From: a virus
Lineage: Duplodnaviria > Heunggongvirae > Uroviricota > Caudoviricetes
Length of the DNA stretch: 35,499 nt
IMG/VR virus record: IMGVR_UViG_2718217860_000003
Direction: 5' to 3' (one strand)
A program made the position numbers and the translations under genes. This document shows positions 1,641 through 15,698 of this stretch, piece by piece. The notes under the pieces were generated by a model that saw only the letters and a list, made by a program, of their open reading frames with translations, was not told the origin of the DNA and did no database searches. Within the stretch, counting starts at the first letter, position 1. Every line of letters begins with the position of its first letter.

Positions 1641-4148
1641 TTAAGAATCAGCCTGACTCGGGATCAGTTTTTGCCAGATAACTGAAACGTATTTTGCCTG
1701 GTAACGGGCGTCATCAAGTGCATTATGGCGCTCACCTTCGAATGGAATAGCCGTTCTGGCATCGAAGTCTATGGCTTTCCCCAGCTCAACGATTGTGCGT
1801 ACATCGCGATCGTTGTAGTAACGCCACGGGCAGGGGATCCCCTGCCGTTCGTATGAACGGCGCAAAATCGTGTTGTCGAAGTTGGCTCCATTTCCCCAAA
1901 CCTGAACAAAAAATTCACCGGAGTTTTCGTCGATAAATTCTCGCAATTGTAACAGTGCATCATCTAACGGGATTTCATCGGTCATAATGGCAGATTGCGC
2001 TTCGCGTGATTGCTTAAGCCACCATTTAATGGTGTCCCGATCAATGACTCCGCCAGCAGTTTCCAGATCGATAGTCTTACTAAATTCCGGTCCCATATCT
2101 CCGGTTTGCGGATCGAAAAATATTGCACCTATTGAGATGATCGGGGCATCAGGATTTTTTCCCATGGTTTCAAGGTCGATCATTAGATGGTCACACGTCC
2201 TGCTGGTGGATGTGATTCCGTGATGACCGTTCACCTTAATTGGGTGATCTGCCGTCTCGCCAGTTTCATTATCGCTATTGTGATGCTGATTGCCGCCAGT
2301 GTTCTCCTTGTGTGGATGTTCAGCGCCTTCCATTTCCTCCGGATCATCTTCCTGAACTTCAACCTGATACTCTTCATCGAATGTTTCTTGGTATGTTGCG
2401 TCGCCCATCACCGCGCCACAATCAGGGCAGTTGCCGCCGCCGGTCTGACCGCAGGCGGTGCAGACTTTTTCCACTTCCTGTTGCGCTACTGGTTCAGGCT
2501 GTTTCGTTTCTGGCTCGTTTTGTAACGCATTTGGACTGTTTTGTTCCGCTTTTTGGTAGTTCCGTTCCGATTCATGCTGGTTCTGGTTCACAGAATCGCG
2601 GGTCTGGAGCCCCTTAACCCATTTCGGATCATTCGGGTCACTAATCCCTTCAACAAATTCACCACGTGATGCAGCAAGCAACTTATCGGCGTCAGGCTGG
2701 CTGATATTGGCTGCCTGCATAATTTTGTTTACTTCGTCAGCGGTAACTTTTATCGGCTCTGGTTGTTCTGAATCTTCAGCGGTATCTACATTTTGCGGTA
2801 AGCCCGTGTATGTGCCATTTTTTCGGGCAAAATATTCTTCTTTTGTGATTTCAGTGGCGCCAGCAGCCAGTGCCTTATCCAGACCAGAGAGTTTGTTTGC
2901 GCGACCGTATTTTTCTCCGTCCTTATCTGCGAAGAGGAAATAGAACGGCCCCTCACGCTCTACAGATGGTTCAGCTTCCGGCGCGGTTTCATTTTTTGGG
3001 ATATCAGATACCTCAGTTTCCACTGCATCAGTTTGTGTTTCTGATGACTGGAGAACATCAACAGTGCCCAGGTCTGTTTCTTCATTCTCAAACACGCCCT
3101 TTGTCGTCAGGTATTCGCAGATATATTTGTTCAGTGCTACGGGATCTTTGTGAATGTCGATCGGACGCTCACGGACAAGGCCAAAAATAGTTTGGCGGTC
3201 GTAGCGAAGGGCATCAGGCTGTTTGCGCATTGATGCCGAGATACGCTTCCAGTCTTCGCGGTCGTTGTCGATAACTTCTTTTTTTGCCCAGCGATGGATG
3301 CTGCCGTCAATGTTTCCGGCATCCACATCACCAGGCCAGAGAGCGTAGGCCAGTTCGTCATCCAGTGTTTTCCATGTCTGCTTGTATTCGCGATGAATGG
3401 CAGCAATGACCGGGCTGATTTTTCCTGTTGAATTTTCAGTGTACTGTTGATTGGCTCTGGCGCGGGCGAGATCAACAACAGACGTGTATTTTCCGGTTTC
3501 CTTGCGTTCACCTTCGCGACGTTTTTTCCAGATGCGCATCTCTGCCTGAATTTCGGGCCATTTAGCACCAGGAATACATTTATGCTTAACCCACCCAATG
3601 GCGTGCAACTTAAGCTCCGGATACATGGCGTTAACTTCTGGCATTTTCATCAACGCTTCAACGATATGTCCGTCGAATGTTGCCATGTCTTCCTGCAACA
3701 ATTCCTGTGCGCTAATAACCATATCAACGGTGATGTTTTCACATGTGTCGAACTTAACCATGACAGCGTTCTGTACTTCAGGGGCCAGCTTGTCAAAAGT
3801 GACGTTCATCGGATCGGATTCAGTCTCAACCGGGACAAAAGAAGCAGACTCCTCATCCCAGCGGTTTTCCTGCATATATTCAGCATCCCATGAATCGAGG
3901 GCAGGGCGGGGTATGCCAGGTTTATCCTCGCAGACAATAAATTTATAAGCGCAGTCCTGAGCAGCCGGATAATGTTCCAGGAATTGCCAGTGAAATTTTG
4001 CTCGAGCACGGCGTTCGTCGCCAGCTTCAATGGCTGTGGCTACAGCCACAGCGCCTTCTTCCCTTGTTGCCAGTTCGTCAGGAATAGCGGCGCAAATAAA
4101 GACTTTACTCATTTGTTTTAACCTCATGACAGATTTAAGGATGAACAA
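1641..4148 (-). CDS. Large early-region protein with a C-terminal DnaQ-like DEDDh 3'-5' exonuclease domain, a central Cys4 zinc-ribbon-like motif and an acidic low-complexity linker
   Basis: 835-aa ORF. The C-terminus carries Exo I (MIDLETMG), an Exo II-like (GNGANFDNTIL) and Exo III (ERHNALDDARYQ) motif. A Cys cluster CTACGQTGGGNCPDCG lies mid-protein. The more likely start is Met13 at 4112 (MSKVF...) with GAGG 9 nt upstream. Sits in the exo/recE position of lambdoid phages. Confidence 0.8.
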   Translation of the reverse strand: MFILKSVMRLKQMSKVFICAAIPDELATREEGAVAVATAIEAGDERRARAKFHWQFLEHYPAAQDCAYKFIVCEDKPGIPRPALDSWDAEYMQENRWDEESASFVPVETESDPMNVTFDKLAPEVQNAVMVKFDTCENITVDMVISAQELLQEDMATFDGHIVEALMKMPEVNAMYPELKLHAIGWVKHKCIPGAKWPEIQAEMRIWKKRREGERKETGKYTSVVDLARARANQQYTENSTGKISPVIAAIHREYKQTWKTLDDELAYALWPGDVDAGNIDGSIHRWAKKEVIDNDREDWKRISASMRKQPDALRYDRQTIFGLVRERPIDIHKDPVALNKYICEYLTTKGVFENEETDLGTVDVLQSSETQTDAVETEVSDIPKNETAPEAEPSVEREGPFYFLFADKDGEKYGRANKLSGLDKALAAGATEITKEEYFARKNGTYTGLPQNVDTAEDSEQPEPIKVTADEVNKIMQAANISQPDADKLLAASRGEFVEGISDPNDPKWVKGLQTRDSVNQNQHESERNYQKAEQNSPNALQNEPETKQPEPVAQQEVEKVCTACGQTGGGNCPDCGAVMGDATYQETFDEEYQVEVQEDDPEEMEGAEHPHKENTGGNQHHNSDNETGETADHPIKVNGHHGITSTSRTCDHLMIDLETMGKNPDAPIISIGAIFFDPQTGDMGPEFSKTIDLETAGGVIDRDTIKWWLKQSREAQSAIMTDEIPLDDALLQLREFIDENSGEFFVQVWGNGANFDNTILRRSYERQGIPCPWRYYNDRDVRTIVELGKAIDFDARTAIPFEGERHNALDDARYQAKYVSVIWQKLIPSQADS

Positions 4149-8753: not shown

Positions 8754-9653
8754 ATGATTGATCCACTTATTAGAAACTTACAGAGTGATATTGCACTACT
8801 CCAGCTTTATATCGCGCAACGCAAACAGGCAGGCTTTCATGACATGGAAAGAATAATTGAGTCATTGACCATCTTTATGTTTCGCGCGCTGAAAATGGGT
8901 GAACTGGTAAACATGAATCAGATTAAAGTTAATTTTCCCGCCATTGATTTAGCTGATAATAAAAACATGATAGCAGTTCAAGTTACTACGAATGCAAGTC
9001 CAGCAAAAATTAAAAAAACTATCGAATCTTTTGAGGAAGCAAATGAAATAGGAGAGAGTCTGAAAGATAAATACTCTACTTTATATATTTTTGGTTTTTG
9101 TAAAGCCTCAAGATACCTAACTCCAAGTTATTGTAAAATAATCGACCCCAGCTATTTCGTGAATGAACTTTGCGATAAAGCAGATGAAGATATGGTCCAG
9201 GATATGATTGACGCCATTCGACGCCATCATGATTATACATCATTACATCCATGGAGTGATAAAGATTCACTCGAAATTATACTCAATATTATTAATCGCA
9301 ATGCAATAAAACATCGGATGAGTTGCGAAGGCAGTCTGTCTGATATGCTCACTGGTTTAAAAGAAATTAATGAAGTAATTACAAAAGGAACAATTCAACG
9401 TAAGCAACGTTCAAAATCGATATCTGACTTCAAAGATCAAAGCATGGTGAAATTTATGAGAGGTGTAATGGATGATTTGTCTGTTATTCAAGCCATAGTG
9501 AACAAATCTAAAGTTAACCAAGGTGATATGGTTTATATAAGCCATGAAGATATGATTAATATTGATAAATTAAAAGCTAAAATAGCAAGTGATTCATCAG
9601 AGATTGCAAGGCTAAATAATATTGATATAACACTAAATGTTGTTGATTTATAA
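8754..9653 (+). CDS. Hypothetical protein encoded in an AT-rich accessory island (candidate defence/abortive-infection-type protein)
   Basis: 299-aa ORF in a visibly AT-rich block; no confident family match. Convergent with the membrane protein/methyltransferase operon. Confidence 0.7.
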   Translation: MIDPLIRNLQSDIALLQLYIAQRKQAGFHDMERIIESLTIFMFRALKMGELVNMNQIKVNFPAIDLADNKNMIAVQVTTNASPAKIKKTIESFEEANEIGESLKDKYSTLYIFGFCKASRYLTPSYCKIIDPSYFVNELCDKADEDMVQDMIDAIRRHHDYTSLHPWSDKDSLEIILNIINRNAIKHRMSCEGSLSDMLTGLKEINEVITKGTIQRKQRSKSISDFKDQSMVKFMRGVMDDLSVIQAIVNKSKVNQGDMVYISHEDMINIDKLKAKIASDSSEIARLNNIDITLNVVDL

Positions 9654-9967
9654 TTGTCGATTTAGCAAAACAGAGAATGCTTTGAAAGTTTCACCGAGAA
9701 ATATTTATTGTGAACCTCCTTATTGTTTATCGACTTTTACTCTCCGCTCATTGCAGTACTGTCGGAGAAGGCTACTATGTACAAGAAGCAGCTAACATAA
9801 GCGAGCATCACTATTGATATTAGGAAGAGTATATAAAAACTTCATGCTGAACCTTACAAAAGTAGGTAAACCGGCAATGGCCTAAGTGGCAGGGTCATGT
9901 TGATCCGGCACTGCCGAGCTAATAATTAACAAGCAAATCACTCTTTCTAATAATTTGTTGAAATAAA

Positions 9968-10627
9968 CTAAATATGTATATGTTTACCAACAACCACATA
10001 TGAACTACCTGCTTTGCTCCATGATTTTATTATTTCTAAATTATTATCTGAGCATATTTTACTTACAGTATCCACATCTAATAAACCATAGTAGAAAGCA
10101 TTACGAGAGTTTTGGTATATATACCCATGCAAATGTTTAATACCGCTCTCGTACCTCTTGAAATAAGAACTTTTGTATTGATTGACAATCAGTGCTTCAC
10201 CATCACTCTTTAATAATTCTCTAATCGCACTGAGGACTTTGTGAATTGTGGATTCACATGGAATTGCGGAAAGCACGTTTGCGCAAAGTATGAAATCATA
10301 ATGATTTGTTATTTTATCTATATTTTCATAAGAAACAATATTAGCATTCTTATAGTTATTTATCACGTAATCTGGAATCGTGGTTTGTACACCTCTGATA
10401 ATTTGCACTCTTTCTAGTTGTCTTCTGGAATCTAAAAATGTCACAGTTTCAAATTTATTTACTAATTGTTCTGAATATCTAAGTTTTCCACATCCAAAAT
10501 CAAGGGCATTGCCATTTTTATTAGTGCTTTCAATCTGTTTACAGAGATAGTTAGATGGCATAGTGTGCGGTTTCGCTGCATTTTCTGAACGTATGTTTAT
10601 TCCATTTATTTTGTAATTCAAAATCAA
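9968..10627 (-). CDS. Class I SAM-dependent methyltransferase (not a recognisable DNA methyltransferase)
   Basis: 219-aa ORF with SAM-binding motif I (ALDFGCGKLRYSEQL), an acidic post-I residue (VTFLDSRRQ) and a motif II-like segment (DFILCANVLSAIP). No DPPY/NPPY or PCQ motifs. Confidence 0.75.
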   Translation of the reverse strand: MILNYKINGINIRSENAAKPHTMPSNYLCKQIESTNKNGNALDFGCGKLRYSEQLVNKFETVTFLDSRRQLERVQIIRGVQTTIPDYVINNYKNANIVSYENIDKITNHYDFILCANVLSAIPCESTIHKVLSAIRELLKSDGEALIVNQYKSSYFKRYESGIKHLHGYIYQNSRNAFYYGLLDVDTVSKICSDNNLEIIKSWSKAGSSYVVVGKHIHI

Positions 10628-10633
10628 CCTCGT

Positions 10634-11341
10634 TTAAAAAATATTGTTATTGTTAAAGAATTCTTTTATTTTGCTATCAGGTATTTGTCTTACTTGGCTT
10701 TCTGTTCTTGGTTTAACTGATGCTATGAAAATAAGGAAGTCAAATGCGACAAGAGAAATAATCCACAACCAAAGATTAATTAAAGAGCCAGTAACAGAGA
10801 ATATATTTGTTAATTTGGCGATACTTATTATTAAAATAGTAACAAATGCGATTACTGTATGTTCAAAGAAAACCCAAAAGTAATAAACTTTGTTCCAGAA
10901 AAGTTCAACGTAATGTTTGTCTTTTAACTCTTTAACTTCTGGGTAATACAGTTTACTCATTACCTTGTGAGATTCATCAGTAGTTAATTTTCTCGTAACG
11001 CCTGCAATTTTTGCTAATGGTTTAATAATTAAATGACTATCCCACATCTTCCTTATTCCAATAATTTTTGCTACATTATTATGTAGATCTAAAGCTCCAC
11101 TAATTACTGACCAAAAAACTGAAGATGCAATTGGTAATATGCCAAAGGTTAATATCCATTTAATAAATTCCTCGTAGTCTTTAACGGGGGGGATATACTT
11201 GGCATTAATGCCAACCAATGGCATGTAGCCATAAATGACTAATGATAGGTAAAATATAAATGTAGTAATAAAAGTCGCCTTATGGAGCATAGGCAACATT
11301 TCATTATAACTCTTTGGTGGTTCTAACATTTTACTCTCCAA
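10634..11341 (-). CDS. Integral membrane protein (about 4 predicted TM helices), function unknown; forms an operon with the downstream methyltransferase
   Basis: 235-aa ORF with several long hydrophobic stretches; its stop lies 6 bp from the methyltransferase start on the same strand. Confidence 0.7.
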   Translation of the reverse strand: MESKMLEPPKSYNEMLPMLHKATFITTFIFYLSLVIYGYMPLVGINAKYIPPVKDYEEFIKWILTFGILPIASSVFWSVISGALDLHNNVAKIIGIRKMWDSHLIIKPLAKIAGVTRKLTTDESHKVMSKLYYPEVKELKDKHYVELFWNKVYYFWVFFEHTVIAFVTILIISIAKLTNIFSVTGSLINLWLWIISLVAFDFLIFIASVKPRTESQVRQIPDSKIKEFFNNNNIF

Positions 11342-12014: not shown

Positions 12015-12227
12015 ATGCTCTACACACGTAGGTTAGCCTCTTACGTGCCGAAAGGCAAGGAGAAGCAGGCTATGAAGCAGCAAAAGGCGATGCTAATCGC
12101 CCTGATCGTCATCTGTTTAACCGTCATAGTGACGGCACTGGTAACGAGGAAAGACCTCTGCGAGGTACGAATCCGAACCGGTCAGACGGAGGTCGCTGTC
12201 TTCACAGCTTACGAACCTGAGGAGTAA
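12015..12227 (+). CDS. Mok-like leader ORF in frame with hokD (N-terminally extended reading frame)
   Basis: The track ORF starts 19 codons upstream of the Hok Met in the same frame. Confidence 0.35.
   Translation: MLYTRRLASYVPKGKEKQAMKQQKAMLIALIVICLTVIVTALVTRKDLCEVRIRTGQTEVAVFTAYEPEE
12072..12227 (+). CDS. hokD: Hok/Gef-family type I toxin (HokD/RelF-like)
   Basis: 51-aa product MKQQKAMLIALIVICLTVIVTALVTRKDLCEVRIRTGQTEVAVFTAYEPEE with AAGGAG RBS; single TM helix and conserved Hok C-terminus. Confidence 0.9.
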   Translation: MKQQKAMLIALIVICLTVIVTALVTRKDLCEVRIRTGQTEVAVFTAYEPEE

Positions 12228-12297
12228 GAGACCCGGCGAGGGAGAAATCCCTCGCCACCTCTGATGTGGCAGGCATCCTCAACGCACCCGCACTTAA

Positions 12298-12322
12298 CCC
12301 GCTTCGGCGGGTTTTTGTTTTT
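12298..12322 (+). terminator. Rho-independent terminator at the 3' end of the hokD transcript
   Basis: Hairpin CCCGC-TTCG-GCGGG followed by TTTTTGTTTTT; a second perfect hairpin GGCGAGGGA-GAAA-TCCCTCGCC lies at 12236-12257. Confidence 0.7.
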
Positions 12323-12443
12323 ATTTTCAACGCGTTTGAAGTTCTGGACGGTGCCGGAATAGAATCAAAAATACTTAAGTAGCGCGCAGGGATAAGAGGG
12401 ATGGTCCCTTAAAGGGGAGAGCTAATTATCCGGAAGGATTCTG

Positions 12444-12695
12444 ATGATGAACATCGAAGAACTGCGTAAAATTTTTTGTGAAGATGGCCTCTATGCTGTG
12501 TGCGTTGAAAATGGAAATATTGTTAGTCATTACCGCATTGTGTGTTTGCAAAAAAATGGGGCTGCGTTAATTAATTTTGTGGATGCCCGAGTGACGGACG
12601 GATTTATCTTGCGCGACGGTGAGTTTGTCACTTCATTACAGGCATTGAAAGAGATCGGAATAAAAGCTGGCTTTTCTGCTTTTTCAGAAGAATAA
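12444..12695 (+). CDS. rem: Rem-like prophage protein
   Basis: 83-aa ORF MMNIEELRKIF... adjacent to hokD, as in the Qin prophage. Confidence 0.65.
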   Translation: MMNIEELRKIFCEDGLYAVCVENGNIVSHYRIVCLQKNGAALINFVDARVTDGFILRDGEFVTSLQALKEIGIKAGFSAFSEE

Positions 12696-12761
12696 ACTCA
12701 TCTACAATCTTGCGCGGGGCTGAACTCCCGCTGAGTAACACCGTGCCACCGGAGAAAACCG

Positions 12762-13040
12762 ATGGCACGCAACGCAAAATATTACAATCATGATAATTCG
12801 ACCGTTCTTGCCCACACGCACGAGCGGTATTCTCATGCATTTAAGTCAGACTGGTACCAGCATCCCCCATGCACTGAAGAACAGGCCGAATGGCTCATTC
12901 AGTGTTACCGCAGGCGCGGATGCGAGGTTAAAAAAGCCCTTAGCCTCGACTACCGTCACTGGATAATCTCCGTCAGGCTCCCTTACTCCGAACGGCCACC
13001 GCGTCCGTCCCGCACATTCCAGCAACGTATCTGGAGGTAA
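12762..13040 (+). CDS. Hypothetical protein, translationally coupled to the downstream DUF968 gene
   Basis: 92-aa ORF; its stop TAA (13038-13040) is followed by GTG at 13042, with GGAGG just upstream. Confidence 0.5.
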   Translation: MARNAKYYNHDNSTVLAHTHERYSHAFKSDWYQHPPCTEEQAEWLIQCYRRRGCEVKKALSLDYRHWIISVRLPYSERPPRPSRTFQQRIWR

Positions 13041-13041
13041 C

Positions 13042-14091
13042 GTGCGGGTATTACTTCGACCTGTTCTGGTACCGGAACTCGGGCTGGTGATCGTTAAGCC
13101 GGGCCGTGAATCCATGCCGGTATTCCACAATACCCGGGTACTGGTGGAGCCGGAACCGAAAAGCATGCGTAATCTGTCGTCCGGGGTCGTTCCTGCCGTT
13201 CGCCAGCCGCTGGCGGAGGATAAATCATTACTGCCATTTTTCAGCGACGAACGAGTGATTCGTGCTGCTGGTGGCGCTGGCGCATTGTCTGACTGGTTAC
13301 TGCGCCATGTTAAATCCTGCCAGTGGCCACACGGCGATTATCACCACAGTGAAACCGTCATTCACCGTTATGGTACCGGCGCAATGGTGTTGTGCTGGCA
13401 CTGCGACAACCAGCTGCGCGACCAGACCTCCGAATCACTCGGGCAACTTGCTCACCAAAACCTGTCTGCATGGATGATTGACGTCATACTCCATGCAATG
13501 AATGGCTCGCAGGAACGGGAATTATCGCTGGCTGAATTATCCTGGTGGGCGGTCCGCAATCAGGTGGCGGACGCGCTACCGGAAGCGGTATTACGTCGTT
13601 CGCTGGGGTTGCGTGCGGAAAAAATCCGCTCAATGTACCGTGAAAGCGACATCGTACCGGGAGAGCAGACCGCCACCAGCATACTGAAGCAGCGCACAAA
13701 AAATCTTGCACTGTTGCCTCACGCCCACCAGGAACAACACCCACTACAGGAAAAGACGGTGGTAAGCATTGCCGTTGATCCTGAGTCTCCGGAATCTTTC
13801 ATGAAACGACCTAAACGTCGCCGCTGGGTTAACGAGAAATACACACGCTGGGTGAAGACACAGCCGTGTGCGTGTTGTGGTAAGCCAGCCGACGATCCCC
13901 ATCACCTGATTGGTCATGGTCAGGGCGGAATGGGGACAAAATCTCACGATATTTTCACGCTACCGCTGTGTCGGGAGCATCACAACGAGCTTCATGCGGA
14001 TCCGCTGGCGTTCGAAGAAAAGCATGGTTCTCAGGTTGATTTAATTTTTCGTTTTCTTGATCACGCCTTTGCAACTGGCGTGCTTGGGTAA
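13042..14091 (+). CDS. ydfU: DUF968-family prophage protein (YdfU-like) with a C-terminal HNH-like Cys/His motif
   Basis: 349-aa ORF; C-terminus has CACCGKPADDPHHLIGHGQGG...LPLCREHHNELH, a zinc-finger/HNH-like pattern. Confidence 0.7.
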   Translation: MRVLLRPVLVPELGLVIVKPGRESMPVFHNTRVLVEPEPKSMRNLSSGVVPAVRQPLAEDKSLLPFFSDERVIRAAGGAGALSDWLLRHVKSCQWPHGDYHHSETVIHRYGTGAMVLCWHCDNQLRDQTSESLGQLAHQNLSAWMIDVILHAMNGSQERELSLAELSWWAVRNQVADALPEAVLRRSLGLRAEKIRSMYRESDIVPGEQTATSILKQRTKNLALLPHAHQEQHPLQEKTVVSIAVDPESPESFMKRPKRRRWVNEKYTRWVKTQPCACCGKPADDPHHLIGHGQGGMGTKSHDIFTLPLCREHHNELHADPLAFEEKHGSQVDLIFRFLDHAFATGVLG

Positions 14092-14103: not shown

Positions 14104-14478
14104 ATGCTCATAGATTTGGTTTTACCTTACCCGCCGACGGTGAACACTTACTGGCGACGCCGTGGCAGCACATATTTTATCTCGGAGGAGGGAAAGCGTT
14201 ATCGCCGGGCTGTGGCGCTTATTGTTCGCCAGCAGCGGCTGAAATTAAGCCTGTCCGGAAGGCTAGCGATAAAGGTGATTGCAGAGCCACCGGATAAGCG
14301 TCGTCGCGACCTGGACAATATCCTGAAAGCACCGCTGGATGCGCTGACGCATGCGGGAGTGTTAATGGACGATGAGCAGTTTGATGAAATCAATATCGTT
14401 CGTGGTCAGCCAGTATCTGGTGGACGTATGGGGGTGAAGATTTACCCCATAATGCATGAAGAGCAGGTCAAAAAATGA
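14104..14478 (+). CDS. rusA: RusA-family Holliday-junction resolvase
   Basis: 124-aa ORF with conserved acidic residues (PDKRRRDLDNILKAPLDAL...VLMDDEQ) matching the RusA fold; overlaps the Q start by 4 nt. Confidence 0.8.
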   Translation: MLIDLVLPYPPTVNTYWRRRGSTYFISEEGKRYRRAVALIVRQQRLKLSLSGRLAIKVIAEPPDKRRRDLDNILKAPLDALTHAGVLMDDEQFDEINIVRGQPVSGGRMGVKIYPIMHEEQVKK

Positions 14479-15296
14479 AACTGGAAGATTTACCGAAATA
14501 CTACTCCCCAAAATCCCCTTGCCTGACCGATGCATCGGCCTCAACGTCAAAAGATGCGCTGAGTATCACTGATGTGATGGCCGCGCAGGGCATGACACAG
14601 AATCGGGCTGAGATGGGGTTTTCTGCGTTCCTGGGGAAAATGGGCATCAGTATGAATGACAGGGCGCGGGCAACAGAATTACTGGCAGATTATGCACTCA
14701 GTCGGTGCGATCGTGTGGCGGCGTTGAGAAAACTTCCGGCAGAAATAAAACCGTTAGTGATGCGCATTATGGCTTCGTACGCTTTTGAGGATTATGCCCG
14801 CAGCGCAGCGAGTAAAAAGCAGTGCCCTTGTTGCTATGGGGAAAAATTTATTGAAAGCGTAGTTTTTACAAACAAGGTCCAGTATCCGGATGGTAAGCCG
14901 CCGGTATGGGCAAAGTGTACGAAAGGTGTGTATCCGTCTTACTGGGAAGAATGGAAAAAAGTCAGGGAGGTGGTAAAAGTTGCCTGTCCGGAGTGTGGCG
15001 GAAAGGGTGAGGTTTCCACCGTCTGTAAGGATTGCCGTGGGCGTGGTGTCGCCATTCACCGTGAAGAGTCGGTAAAACGTGGTATGCCTGTTATCAGAGA
15101 CTGCCAGCGTTGTGGTGGTCGTGGCTATGAAAGACTACCATCAACGGAGGCATTTAATGCTATATGCGAGGTGACAAACCAGATAACACGCGCGTCATGG
15201 GAAAAAACAGTTAAGAAATTCTATGATGCGCTGGTGACCCGGTTTGATATTGAAGAAGCATGGGCTGAGCGGCAGTTAAAAAAGGTAACTAGGTAA
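14475..15296 (+). CDS. quuQ: Late-gene antiterminator Q (Q21/Q82-type, zinc-finger containing)
   Basis: 273-aa ORF with Cys clusters (CPCCYG, CPECGGKGE, CKDCRGRG, CQRCGGRG), immediately upstream of a promoter/terminator pair and the lysis genes. Confidence 0.8.
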   Translation: MKLEDLPKYYSPKSPCLTDASASTSKDALSITDVMAAQGMTQNRAEMGFSAFLGKMGISMNDRARATELLADYALSRCDRVAALRKLPAEIKPLVMRIMASYAFEDYARSAASKKQCPCCYGEKFIESVVFTNKVQYPDGKPPVWAKCTKGVYPSYWEEWKKVREVVKVACPECGGKGEVSTVCKDCRGRGVAIHREESVKRGMPVIRDCQRCGGRGYERLPSTEAFNAICEVTNQITRASWEKTVKKFYDALVTRFDIEEAWAERQLKKVTR

Positions 15297-15329: not shown

Positions 15330-15378
15330 CGTCATAACGATGGGCTTTTTATACCTGACGTTAGAAGAGTTTCTACAA

Positions 15379-15402
15379 CCCGCCACCGAGCGGGTTTTTT
15401 AT
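15379..15402 (+). terminator. Intrinsic terminator (tR'-like) downstream of PR'
   Basis: Hairpin CCCGC-CACCGA-GCGGG followed by TTTTTTATT. Confidence 0.6.
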
Positions 15403-15439: not shown

Positions 15440-15515
15440 GGTCCTTTAGCTCAGTGGTGAGAGCGAGCGACTCATAATCGCCAGGTCGCTGGTTCAAATC
15501 CAGCAAGGGCCACCA
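15440..15515 (+). tRNA. tRNA with CAU anticodon (ileX/ileZ-type tRNA-Ile2 if lysidine-modified; reads as Met by anticodon alone)
   Basis: Cloverleaf: acceptor GGTCCTT/AAGGGCC, D-arm GCTCAGTGGTGAGAGC, anticodon loop CTCATAA, T-arm GGTTCAAATCC, 3' ACCA. One A-C mismatch at the base of the anticodon stem. Confidence 0.8.
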
Positions 15516-15621: not shown

Positions 15622-15698
15622 GCGTTGTTAGCTCAGCCGGACAGAGCAATTGCCTTCTAAGCAATCGGTCACTGGTTCGAATCCAGTACAGCGCGCCA
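15622..15698 (+). tRNA. tRNA-Arg (UCU anticodon)
   Basis: Acceptor GCGTTGT/ACAGCGC, D-arm AGCTCAGCCGGACAGAGC, anticodon loop CTTCTAA, T-arm GGTTCGAATCC, 3' GCCA. Confidence 0.8.

Follow-up and report, generated by a model that had tools for sequence, protein, structure and literature searches.

A pair of adjacent genes was analyzed at positions 12762–14091 (+ strand) of a 35,499-nucleotide (nt) viral sequence (Caudoviricetes; IMG/VR record IMGVR_UViG_2718217860_000003), hereafter the window: a 92-amino acid (aa) open reading frame (ORF), termed ORF A, and directly downstream of it a 349-aa DUF968 protein of the YdfU family, termed YdfU. We find it fairly probable that the two genes form a module of the phage nin operon, in which YdfU would act as a His-Me finger (HNH) nuclease and would be translated by coupling to a small upstream protein that is not dedicated to it. 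YdfU would consist of a CQ…CWHCDN N-terminal module, a helical middle region and a C-terminal His-Me finger of the YbcO/DUF1364 type, the last with a CCC(H/C) structural zinc site and an apparently intact HH…H-x3-H set of metal and general-base residues. It would share its functional neighborhood with Rap/NinG and RusA, and would be dispensable rather than essential. ORF A would be a small protein with a function of its own (a β-α-β-β domain of 66 aa with a basic tail, preceded in Escherichia by an essentially unconstrained 26-aa extension), and the 3′-end of its gene would supply the ribosome-binding site for whichever nuclease gene follows.

The window is part of an Escherichia coli lambdoid prophage. 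Several complete E. coli chromosomes are 100% identical to the 2.1-kb stretch around the gene pair, and a related region is present in 4560 of 5426 complete E. coli genomes. RefSeq annotates, in an identical genome, hokD and rem, then a 92-aa hypothetical protein and the 349-aa DUF968 protein, followed by RusA, an antitermination protein and two tRNAs. The segment is best explained as the early-right (nin) operon of a Qin- or Rac-like lambdoid prophage, with the order hokD, rem, ORF A, ydfU-like DUF968 gene, rusA and Q. The gene pair itself is ordinary and very common in E. coli lambdoid prophages, and both genes carry a RefSeq annotation in the identical genome.

An earlier reading of the window, made from the sequence only (the sequence-only reading), had listed a 92-aa and a 349-aa ORF separated by a stop codon and 1 nt, and both were confirmed at their positions. 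ORF A runs from an ATG at 12762 to a TAA at 13038–13040 (12762–13040; RefSeq hypothetical protein WP_001515373.1), with a Shine-Dalgarno-like GGAG at 12751–12754, 7 nt 5′ of the ATG. YdfU runs from a GTG at 13042 to a TAA at 14089–14091 (13042–14091; RefSeq WP_048237184.1). At the junction between them (CTGGAGGTAACGTG, with the coupling motif GGAGG-TAA-n-GTG at 13033–13044), GGAGG at 13033–13037 is followed by the TAA, a C at 13041 and the GTG. With its final two sense codons (TGG AGG), ORF A provides the Shine-Dalgarno sequence of the nuclease gene, and the GTG lies 4 nt past that sequence and 1 nt past the ORF A stop. This is the geometry of a coupled pair, with the stop within a few nt of the start and the Shine-Dalgarno sequence inside the upstream coding sequence. 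The GTG as start of YdfU is backed by an N-terminus (MRxLLxP…PELG) that is kept in homologues as distant as those of Vibrio phages and P1 PdcB.

The GGAGG-TAA-n-GTG junction leads into DUF968 in 221 of the 222 E. coli-type loci long enough to judge. Equivalent junctions in relatives read TGGGGG-TGA-nn-ATG or the overlapping TGATG, and a tight junction, with the Shine-Dalgarno sequence in the 3′-end of the ORF A relative, was found with every class of downstream gene. Since the YdfU start is a weak GTG, 4 nt after the Shine-Dalgarno sequence and 1 nt after the stop, coupling by termination-reinitiation is the likeliest mode of YdfU translation, and translation of YdfU probably depends mainly on ribosomes that terminate on ORF A. 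The two genes had been called translationally coupled: the sequence geometry fits this description and the arrangement is kept in every relative examined. A programmed frameshift that joins both ORFs is unlikely, because their relative frames differ between E. coli (TAA-n-GTG) and Klebsiella (TGATG); the sole fused protein is, moreover, a singleton.

Pfam DUF968 (PF06147) matched YdfU over its whole model (1–171 of 171; 4.6e-77, 258.3 bits vs. a cut-off of 27.8) at aa 160–346 (13519–14079), which comprises the helical middle region and the nuclease domain. Thousands of E. coli proteins that bear the name DUF968 are 83–99% identical to YdfU, and phrog_96 (HNH endonuclease) covers the whole protein (1e-175). 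The C-terminal motif described in the sequence-only reading is present (C276-x2-C279, H287-H288, C310 and H313-H314-N-E-L-H318; His-Me finger core at 13867–13995), and its likeness to an HNH/zinc-finger nuclease is supported by profiles, with which a ββα model of moderate confidence agrees. This assignment was already in print. DUF968 and DUF1364 constitute His-Me finger group 7, in which YdfU and YbcO (PDB 3g27) are named, RusA and Q are noted as neighbors, and a role in recombination or repair is proposed (Jablonska et al., 2017, PMC5714182); the zinc-finger HNH motif of DUF968 had been noted before (Curtis et al., 2014, PMC4118853). DUF968 fusions to Erf, Rad52 or RusA have also been reported (PMC4118853, PMC5714182).

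Similarity to HNH proteins was found when the C-terminus of YdfU was checked by profile. Its last 95 residues aligned by hhalign with YbcO-like proteins, which themselves match PDB 3g27 at 3e-55, in the expected register (E=7.6e-5, probability 62%), and PHROG HNH families gave weak direct matches to YdfU at 2e-6 to 2e-4. An AlphaFold2 model was built from an alignment of 45 sequences, all from E. coli (78–99% identity), and its C-terminal third alone is usable. There it predicts strands at 285–288 and 306–309 and a helix at 311–319; the predicted local distance difference test (pLDDT) value is 63–86 for this block and <50 for the loop 289–303. Helices are predicted in the middle region with low to moderate confidence.

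A diverse alignment was made of ten homologues, from E. coli, Shigella SfIV, mEp390, Yersinia YeP1, Klebsiella, two Vibrio phages and P1 (PdcB). C276, H287 and D303 were invariant, and C279, H288, C310, H314 and H318 were nearly so (≥90%). Most members have H or C at position 313, where Vibrio phage Len has E, and C276, C279, C310 and H313 form a putative structural zinc site of the CCC(H/C) type. H287 and H288 are placed at the end of β1, and H314 and H318 on the next helix; the alignment thus shows what is expected of a His-Me finger, a His at the end of β1 and metal-ligand residues on the helix. The ratio of non-synonymous to synonymous polymorphism (pN/pS) was 0.14–0.19 in all three parts of the protein. 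These data suggest that (i) the HNH assignment of YdfU is correct, yet already published, so that the present analysis adds little to it; and (ii) YdfU would be, as we infer, a metal-dependent DNA endonuclease that acts in phage recombination or in the processing of replication intermediates.

About 255 residues precede the HNH core, and they contain a signature that is kept across the family: W85, R88, C93-Q94, H or C at 101 and C118-W119-H120-[C/H]121-D122-N123. The window protein carries C93-Q94 … H101 … C118-W-H-C121-D122-N123, and the segment aa 93–123 maps to 13318–13410. No variation was seen at C93, Q94, C118, W119, D122 or N123, and hardly any at H120, among the E. coli, Shigella, Yersinia, Klebsiella, Vibrio phage and P1 (PdcB) members. 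The N-domain had no match in Pfam or the PDB; the CQ…CWHCDN module is probably zinc-binding. Because the signature is spaced much like the C-terminal motif, an internal duplication, with C93-x7-HH…C118-x2-C-D-N as a degenerate copy of C279-x7-HH…C310-x2-H-H-N, was considered, and it is unsupported: when the N-domain was aligned by hhalign with the C-domain, E was 0.14 and 0.027 (probability <2%) in inconsistent registers, and with YbcO it was 0.69.

At least two distinct C-terminal HNH modules were seen among the E. coli YdfU alleles, …CACCGKPADDPHHLIGHGQGG…LCREHHNELH vs. …CMTCGNQADDPHHIIGHGLGG…LCRKCHNKLH, when window positions 13807–14091 were compared with two other family members (proteins P0080 and P0005). 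Pairwise distances of the HNH module and the N-domain correlate at 0.04 among E. coli alleles. The HNH module is swapped independently of the N-domain, which is domain-level mosaicism within one gene.

ORF A is a genuine, selected gene. With 31 unique DNA variants its pN/pS was 0.215 in its own frame; in the other frames it was 1.4–1.7 in three of five, and it fell to 0.28 in the antisense frame whose third codon positions coincide with those of ORF A. The ORF is intact, with 89–92 codons, in 224 of 229 E. coli-type copies. Constraint is unevenly distributed along the protein. With 106 unique DNA variants, pN/pS was 0.15 for the core (aa 27–92, 12840–13037) and 0.73, a near-neutral value, for codons 1–26 (12762–12839), where the alignment is hypervariable, all indels are in-frame and the reading frame is never lost. 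Positive selection on this N-terminal tail was also considered and discarded: a pN/pS of 4.4 with the 31 close variants fell to 0.73 with 106, and the higher value is a small-sample artefact. Residues 1–22 have pLDDT <50 and are predicted to be a disordered tail. Only Escherichia members have the 26-aa extension; homologues from other genera have a length of 66 aa and match aa 27–92 alone.

The AlphaFold2 model of the core is a β-α-β-β fold (pLDDT ∼84; strands 27–33, 55–60 and 67–74, helix 39–51), after which the protein ends in a basic, proline-rich tail, PPRPSRTFQQRIWR. Comparison of the fold with the PDB gave no significant match, only generic β-α-β matches (EF-G and Snu114 domains, E≥0.3). 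Among the viral models of BFVD the sole significant match was N15 Orf QD1 (E=8e-4). By sequence, ORF A matched no Pfam or NCBIfam model, and phrog_1212 matched aa 27–92 over its entire profile (1–66 of 66; 5.1e-36). A search of 1.8 billion clustered proteins gave 57 representatives at E≤0.001, most of them 66 aa long and aligned to aa 27–92; the 66-aa homologues are 34–50% identical to ORF A. Sixty-three phage records, including N15 Orf QD1, were found by tblastn, and further loci were found in genera such as Enterobacter, Klebsiella, Kluyvera and Citrobacter. The ORF A family (phrog_1212/N15 Orf QD1) is thus small and confined to phages of Enterobacterales. In the Qin prophage of E. coli K-12 MG1655 an intact 92-aa homologue lies 1 nt upstream of ydfU (NC_000913.3, 1644306–1644584, complement), and the RefSeq record has no feature annotated between rem and ydfU; the K-12 reference genome likely misses the annotation of this gene.

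The gene directly 3′ of ORF A relatives was classified in the 283 of 285 loci that were long enough, with classes confirmed by Pfam. It encoded DUF968 in 159 loci, RusA in 61, a short YbcO-like HNH protein in 23, NinG/Rap in 21, YbcO in 15 and a Cys-rich protein in one, and it fell into none of these classes in three. The downstream genes other than DUF968 belong to ORF A's closest relatives, in Enterobacter, Kluyvera, Citrobacter, Klebsiella oxytoca, Raoultella, Leclercia and others, and their junction (TGGGGG-TGA-nn-ATG) is equally tight. In Gifsy-2 and in Edwardsiella phage GF-2 the ORF A relative is followed by NinG. In N15, Orf QD1 is followed by gp41, a Pfam DEDD (RNase_T) exonuclease fused to a Lar-like zinc ribbon. 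The family is thus coupled to at least six nuclease types across phages. Among the cases examined, Erwinia phage Eho59 (vB_EhrS_59) alone has a gene other than a nuclease directly 3′: its ORF A relative overlaps the start of a cytosine methyltransferase gene, with NinF and then NinG beyond (1489–2744, numbering of the Erwinia phage stretch examined). Orf QD1 is unannotated in the N15 record AF064539.1, where it lies at 1501–1713 and gp41 at 1722–2636 (numbering of the N15 stretch examined).

The upstream neighbors of DUF968 genes vary as well. An ORF A relative precedes DUF968 in Klebsiella phage ST846-OXA48phi9.1, and in a Klebsiella lineage with an overlapping junction (TGATG) the two are adjacent in 80 of 80 close loci; identity to the window proteins in this lineage is 43% for the small protein and 50% for DUF968. 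At SfIV-type DUF968 loci ORF A was found in 0 of 80, and a KilA-N protein lies upstream in 77 of 80. The upstream gene encodes RusA in mEp390, KilA-N in YeP1 and Vibrio Pm34, a deoxyribosyltransferase in Vibrio Len and PdcA in P1. P1 PdcA was considered as an ORF A homologue; it agrees with the family in length (66 aa) and position, and its sequence is unrelated. The upstream ORF is therefore kept in homologous loci of the E. coli type (221/222) and the Klebsiella type (80/80) and absent from SfIV-type loci, mEp390, YeP1, the Vibrio phages and P1, and two-way co-occurrence of ORF A and DUF968 was not observed across the family. In Enterobacterales phages, ORF A is best described as the conserved gene to the left of a nin-region slot that exchangeable nucleases occupy.

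Fusions of the two ORFs in other genomes, which a dedicated pair might be expected to show, were sought among the best 120 of 1470 YdfU homologues, and nine over-long models were read. A single ORF A-YdfU fusion was found (protein P0042), a singleton on one contig. The other over-long models that were read were internal (assembly) duplications, alternative start calls, a chimera with the RusA region or proteins in which unrelated sequence replaces the N-terminus. From the domain table alone, three 607-aa models carry a Q-antiterminator domain and one 447-aa model a RusA domain. The three 607-aa models (P0043, P0044 and P0047) are rare and join DUF968 to the Q domain (PF03589), reflecting the adjacency of ydfU and Q as in K-12 Qin; they are either real fusions or sequencing artefacts. 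Pairwise distances of ORF A correlate with those of YdfU at 0.38 for the N-domain, 0.29 for the middle region and 0.06 for the HNH domain. The covariation of ORF A and YdfU is linkage decay, no more than physical proximity predicts.

The sequence-only reading had proposed that ORF A could be a partner or specificity subunit of the nuclease. Such a dedicated subunit of DUF968, in a two-component nuclease, would account for the near-perfect adjacency in E. coli-type loci (221/222), for the same adjacency in the diverged Klebsiella lineage (80/80 close loci) and for the coupled junction. It would not account for the SfIV-type loci (0/80), for mEp390, YeP1, the Vibrio phages and P1, where DUF968 has other upstream genes, or for the close relatives of ORF A that pair with RusA, NinG or YbcO; the sole fusion is a single sequence, the E. 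coli and Klebsiella junctions place the two genes in different relative frames, and the correlation with the HNH domain is only 0.06. The claim that ORF A is a dedicated DUF968 subunit is not supported as stated, since its family pairs with many nucleases and many DUF968 genes have other neighbors, and we consider it very improbable. Doubtful, in our estimate, is a broader role in which ORF A acts as a general accessory factor for whichever phage DNA-branch or HNH nuclease follows, whether as a regulator, as an adaptor to DNA or a host protein, or as a transient inhibitor. The nuclease gene directly 3′ in 280 of the 283 classifiable loci, the DEDD exonuclease after the N15 member, the strong purifying selection on the core and the junction that is always coupled are all as this role would have it. 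The RusA, His-Me finger and DEDD folds and mechanisms are, however, unrelated, and one 66-aa protein is unlikely to recognize them all; in Eho59 a cytosine methyltransferase and NinF come before NinG, many DUF968, RusA and NinG genes have no ORF A, the conserved nin gene order would yield the same pattern without interaction, and covariation is no greater than linkage explains. A bolder form, which we regard as unlikely, would make the 66-aa core a universal companion of phage recombination nucleases at a fixed stoichiometry, gating or directing RusA, Rap/NinG, YbcO, YdfU and the DEDD exonuclease. For example, the nuclease might be inactive until DNA or a host protein is engaged, or be recruited to replication or recombination intermediates, with the N-module of YdfU as a second, degenerate His-Me-like zinc module for substrate recognition.

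That YdfU is instead a DNA-binding or regulatory protein with a degenerate His-Me finger and no working nuclease, perhaps acting with Q, appears quite improbable to us. DUF968 adjoins Q in many phages and rare models fuse both (P0043, P0044 and P0047), one group 7 member is annotated as a transcriptional regulator (PMC5714182), P1 shows no phenotype and its PdcB lacks three of the four key histidines. Against this, H287, H288, H314, H318 and the zinc ligands are kept in E. coli, Shigella, Yersinia, Klebsiella and Vibrio members, all three parts of YdfU are under purifying selection, and the fusions of DUF968 to Erf, Rad52 or RusA point to DNA recombination (PMC4118853, PMC5714182). Several observations nonetheless weigh against the proposal of a coupled His-Me nuclease with a non-dedicated neighbor. 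The Pfam HNHc_6 (PF16784) match to YdfU (5.4e-5, aa 271–319) is under the curated cut-off. The YdfU model is poor overall (mean pLDDT 50) because its shallow alignment held only close E. coli relatives, and its top Foldseek matches, the HNH domains of IscB and Cas5-HNH, are non-significant (E 0.7–3). A sequence search of the PDB with the full-length YdfU profile gave no match, and the search with the single protein likewise gave nothing relevant. No biochemical study of YdfU, YbcO, PdcB or any DUF968 protein was found in the searchable literature. With the histidine loss in PdcB, DUF968 function may need no catalysis. Translational coupling is read from the geometry of the junction alone, and the recurrent position of ORF A before a nuclease gene could mean a real functional link that is underrated here.

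The genes around the pair agree with the order given above. The hokD toxin gene (12015–12330), with a terminator-like hairpin at 12296–12313, lies upstream of rem (12444–12695, + strand; RefSeq protein Rem, phrog_340 match), the upstream neighbor of ORF A. Some phage records name the small-ORF region "toxin to Rem", and no basis for that label was found. Next in the operon after YdfU is the Holliday-junction resolvase gene rusA (14104–14478, + strand; Pfam RusA 2.6e-17; RefSeq), the end of which is overlapped by 4 nt by the start of a Q-type antiterminator gene (14475–15296, + strand; Pfam Antiterm 8e-55). Downstream of Q, ARAGORN predicts tRNA-Met (CAT) at 15440–15515 and tRNA-Arg (TCT) at 15622–15698; RefSeq calls the first of these tRNA-Ile, which would imply a lysidine-modified CAT anticodon. 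A scan between rem and Q gave no strong intrinsic-terminator-like hairpin (7-bp, 5-GC), only weak 5-bp stems at 14203–14217 (inside rusA) and 15230–15243 (inside Q), and a strong terminator-like hairpin lies 3′ of Q at 15377–15396. Because no strong hairpin separates them, the genes from rem to Q look like one early-right transcription unit.

A cargo block (8754–11341) lies between the replication-region genes and hokD. On the + strand it encodes a SMEK-domain protein (8754–9653), the N-terminus of which matches the PADLOC model Aga_REase-PNTD1-PNTD2 at 1e-20. The other strand of the block encodes a SAM-dependent methyltransferase (9968–10627; weak mad2 match, 1e-4) and a 235-aa hydrophobic protein (10634–11341). 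The block may be a defense or modification moron. PADLOC gave no defense-system match for ORF A, YdfU or Rem.

YdfU-like genes occur in most E. coli genomes and in many lambdoid, Stx-converting, Klebsiella, Yersinia and Vibrio phages and in P1. What is new here is minor: the evidence for selection on ORF A, its annotation gap in K-12, its association with the nuclease slot and the N-terminal signature of YdfU. The recurrent place of ORF A upstream of a nuclease is a modest lead, and the view of prophage biology is unchanged unless ORF A proves to modulate these nucleases.

The closest known system is YdfU of the E. coli K-12 Qin prophage (b1560), which belongs to the same family and has the same three-part architecture, the same position between rem and Q, and a 92-aa ORF 1 nt upstream. 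Unlike the window, Qin has no rusA between ydfU and Q, and the proteins of the two show the usual allelic and mosaic differences. YbcO (DUF1364, PF07102; DLP12/phage 82; PDB 3g27) shares with YdfU the elements C…C, [AH]H, G-x-G-x-K-x2-D and C-x2-[CH]-H. Both are found in the nin region beside rusA, and YbcO is also found directly downstream of ORF A relatives. YbcO is, however, a single 96-aa domain, and the extra ∼255 residues of YdfU (CQ…CWHCDN module and helical region) have no YbcO counterpart. Lambda Rap/NinG (PF05766), a member of His-Me finger group 24 (PMC5714182), and RusA (PF05866) are nin-region DNA-branch nucleases that occupy the same slot, with the same coupled junction after ORF A relatives. 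Neither has detectable similarity to YdfU beyond a generic HNH motif, and the fold of RusA differs; since the window carries both YdfU and RusA, YdfU is no simple replacement for a resolvase.

The P1 protein PdcB (2405–3448, numbering of the P1 stretch examined) is a full-length DUF968 homologue (28% identity over aa 32–348; Pfam 3.6e-50) that keeps the N-domain signature. Its gene lies after phd-doc in a plasmid prophage, the small gene upstream, pdcA, is unrelated to ORF A, and pdcB is non-essential (PMC10695390). In PdcB the changes H288Y, H314Q and H318E replace three of the four putative catalytic or metal histidines, and its HNH domain may be inactive. The HNHc_6 (PF16784) Orf-HNH fusions of Listeria and Staphylococcus phages (e.g., phiETA Orf20), once grouped under DUF968 (PMC4118853), have a weak profile similarity to the HNH core of YdfU; their Orf/NinB-like N-terminal part was not detected in YdfU. 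For ORF A the closest known protein is N15 Orf QD1 (phrog_1212), which shares aa 27–92, and to this common core the Escherichia members add the variable tail of ∼26 aa.

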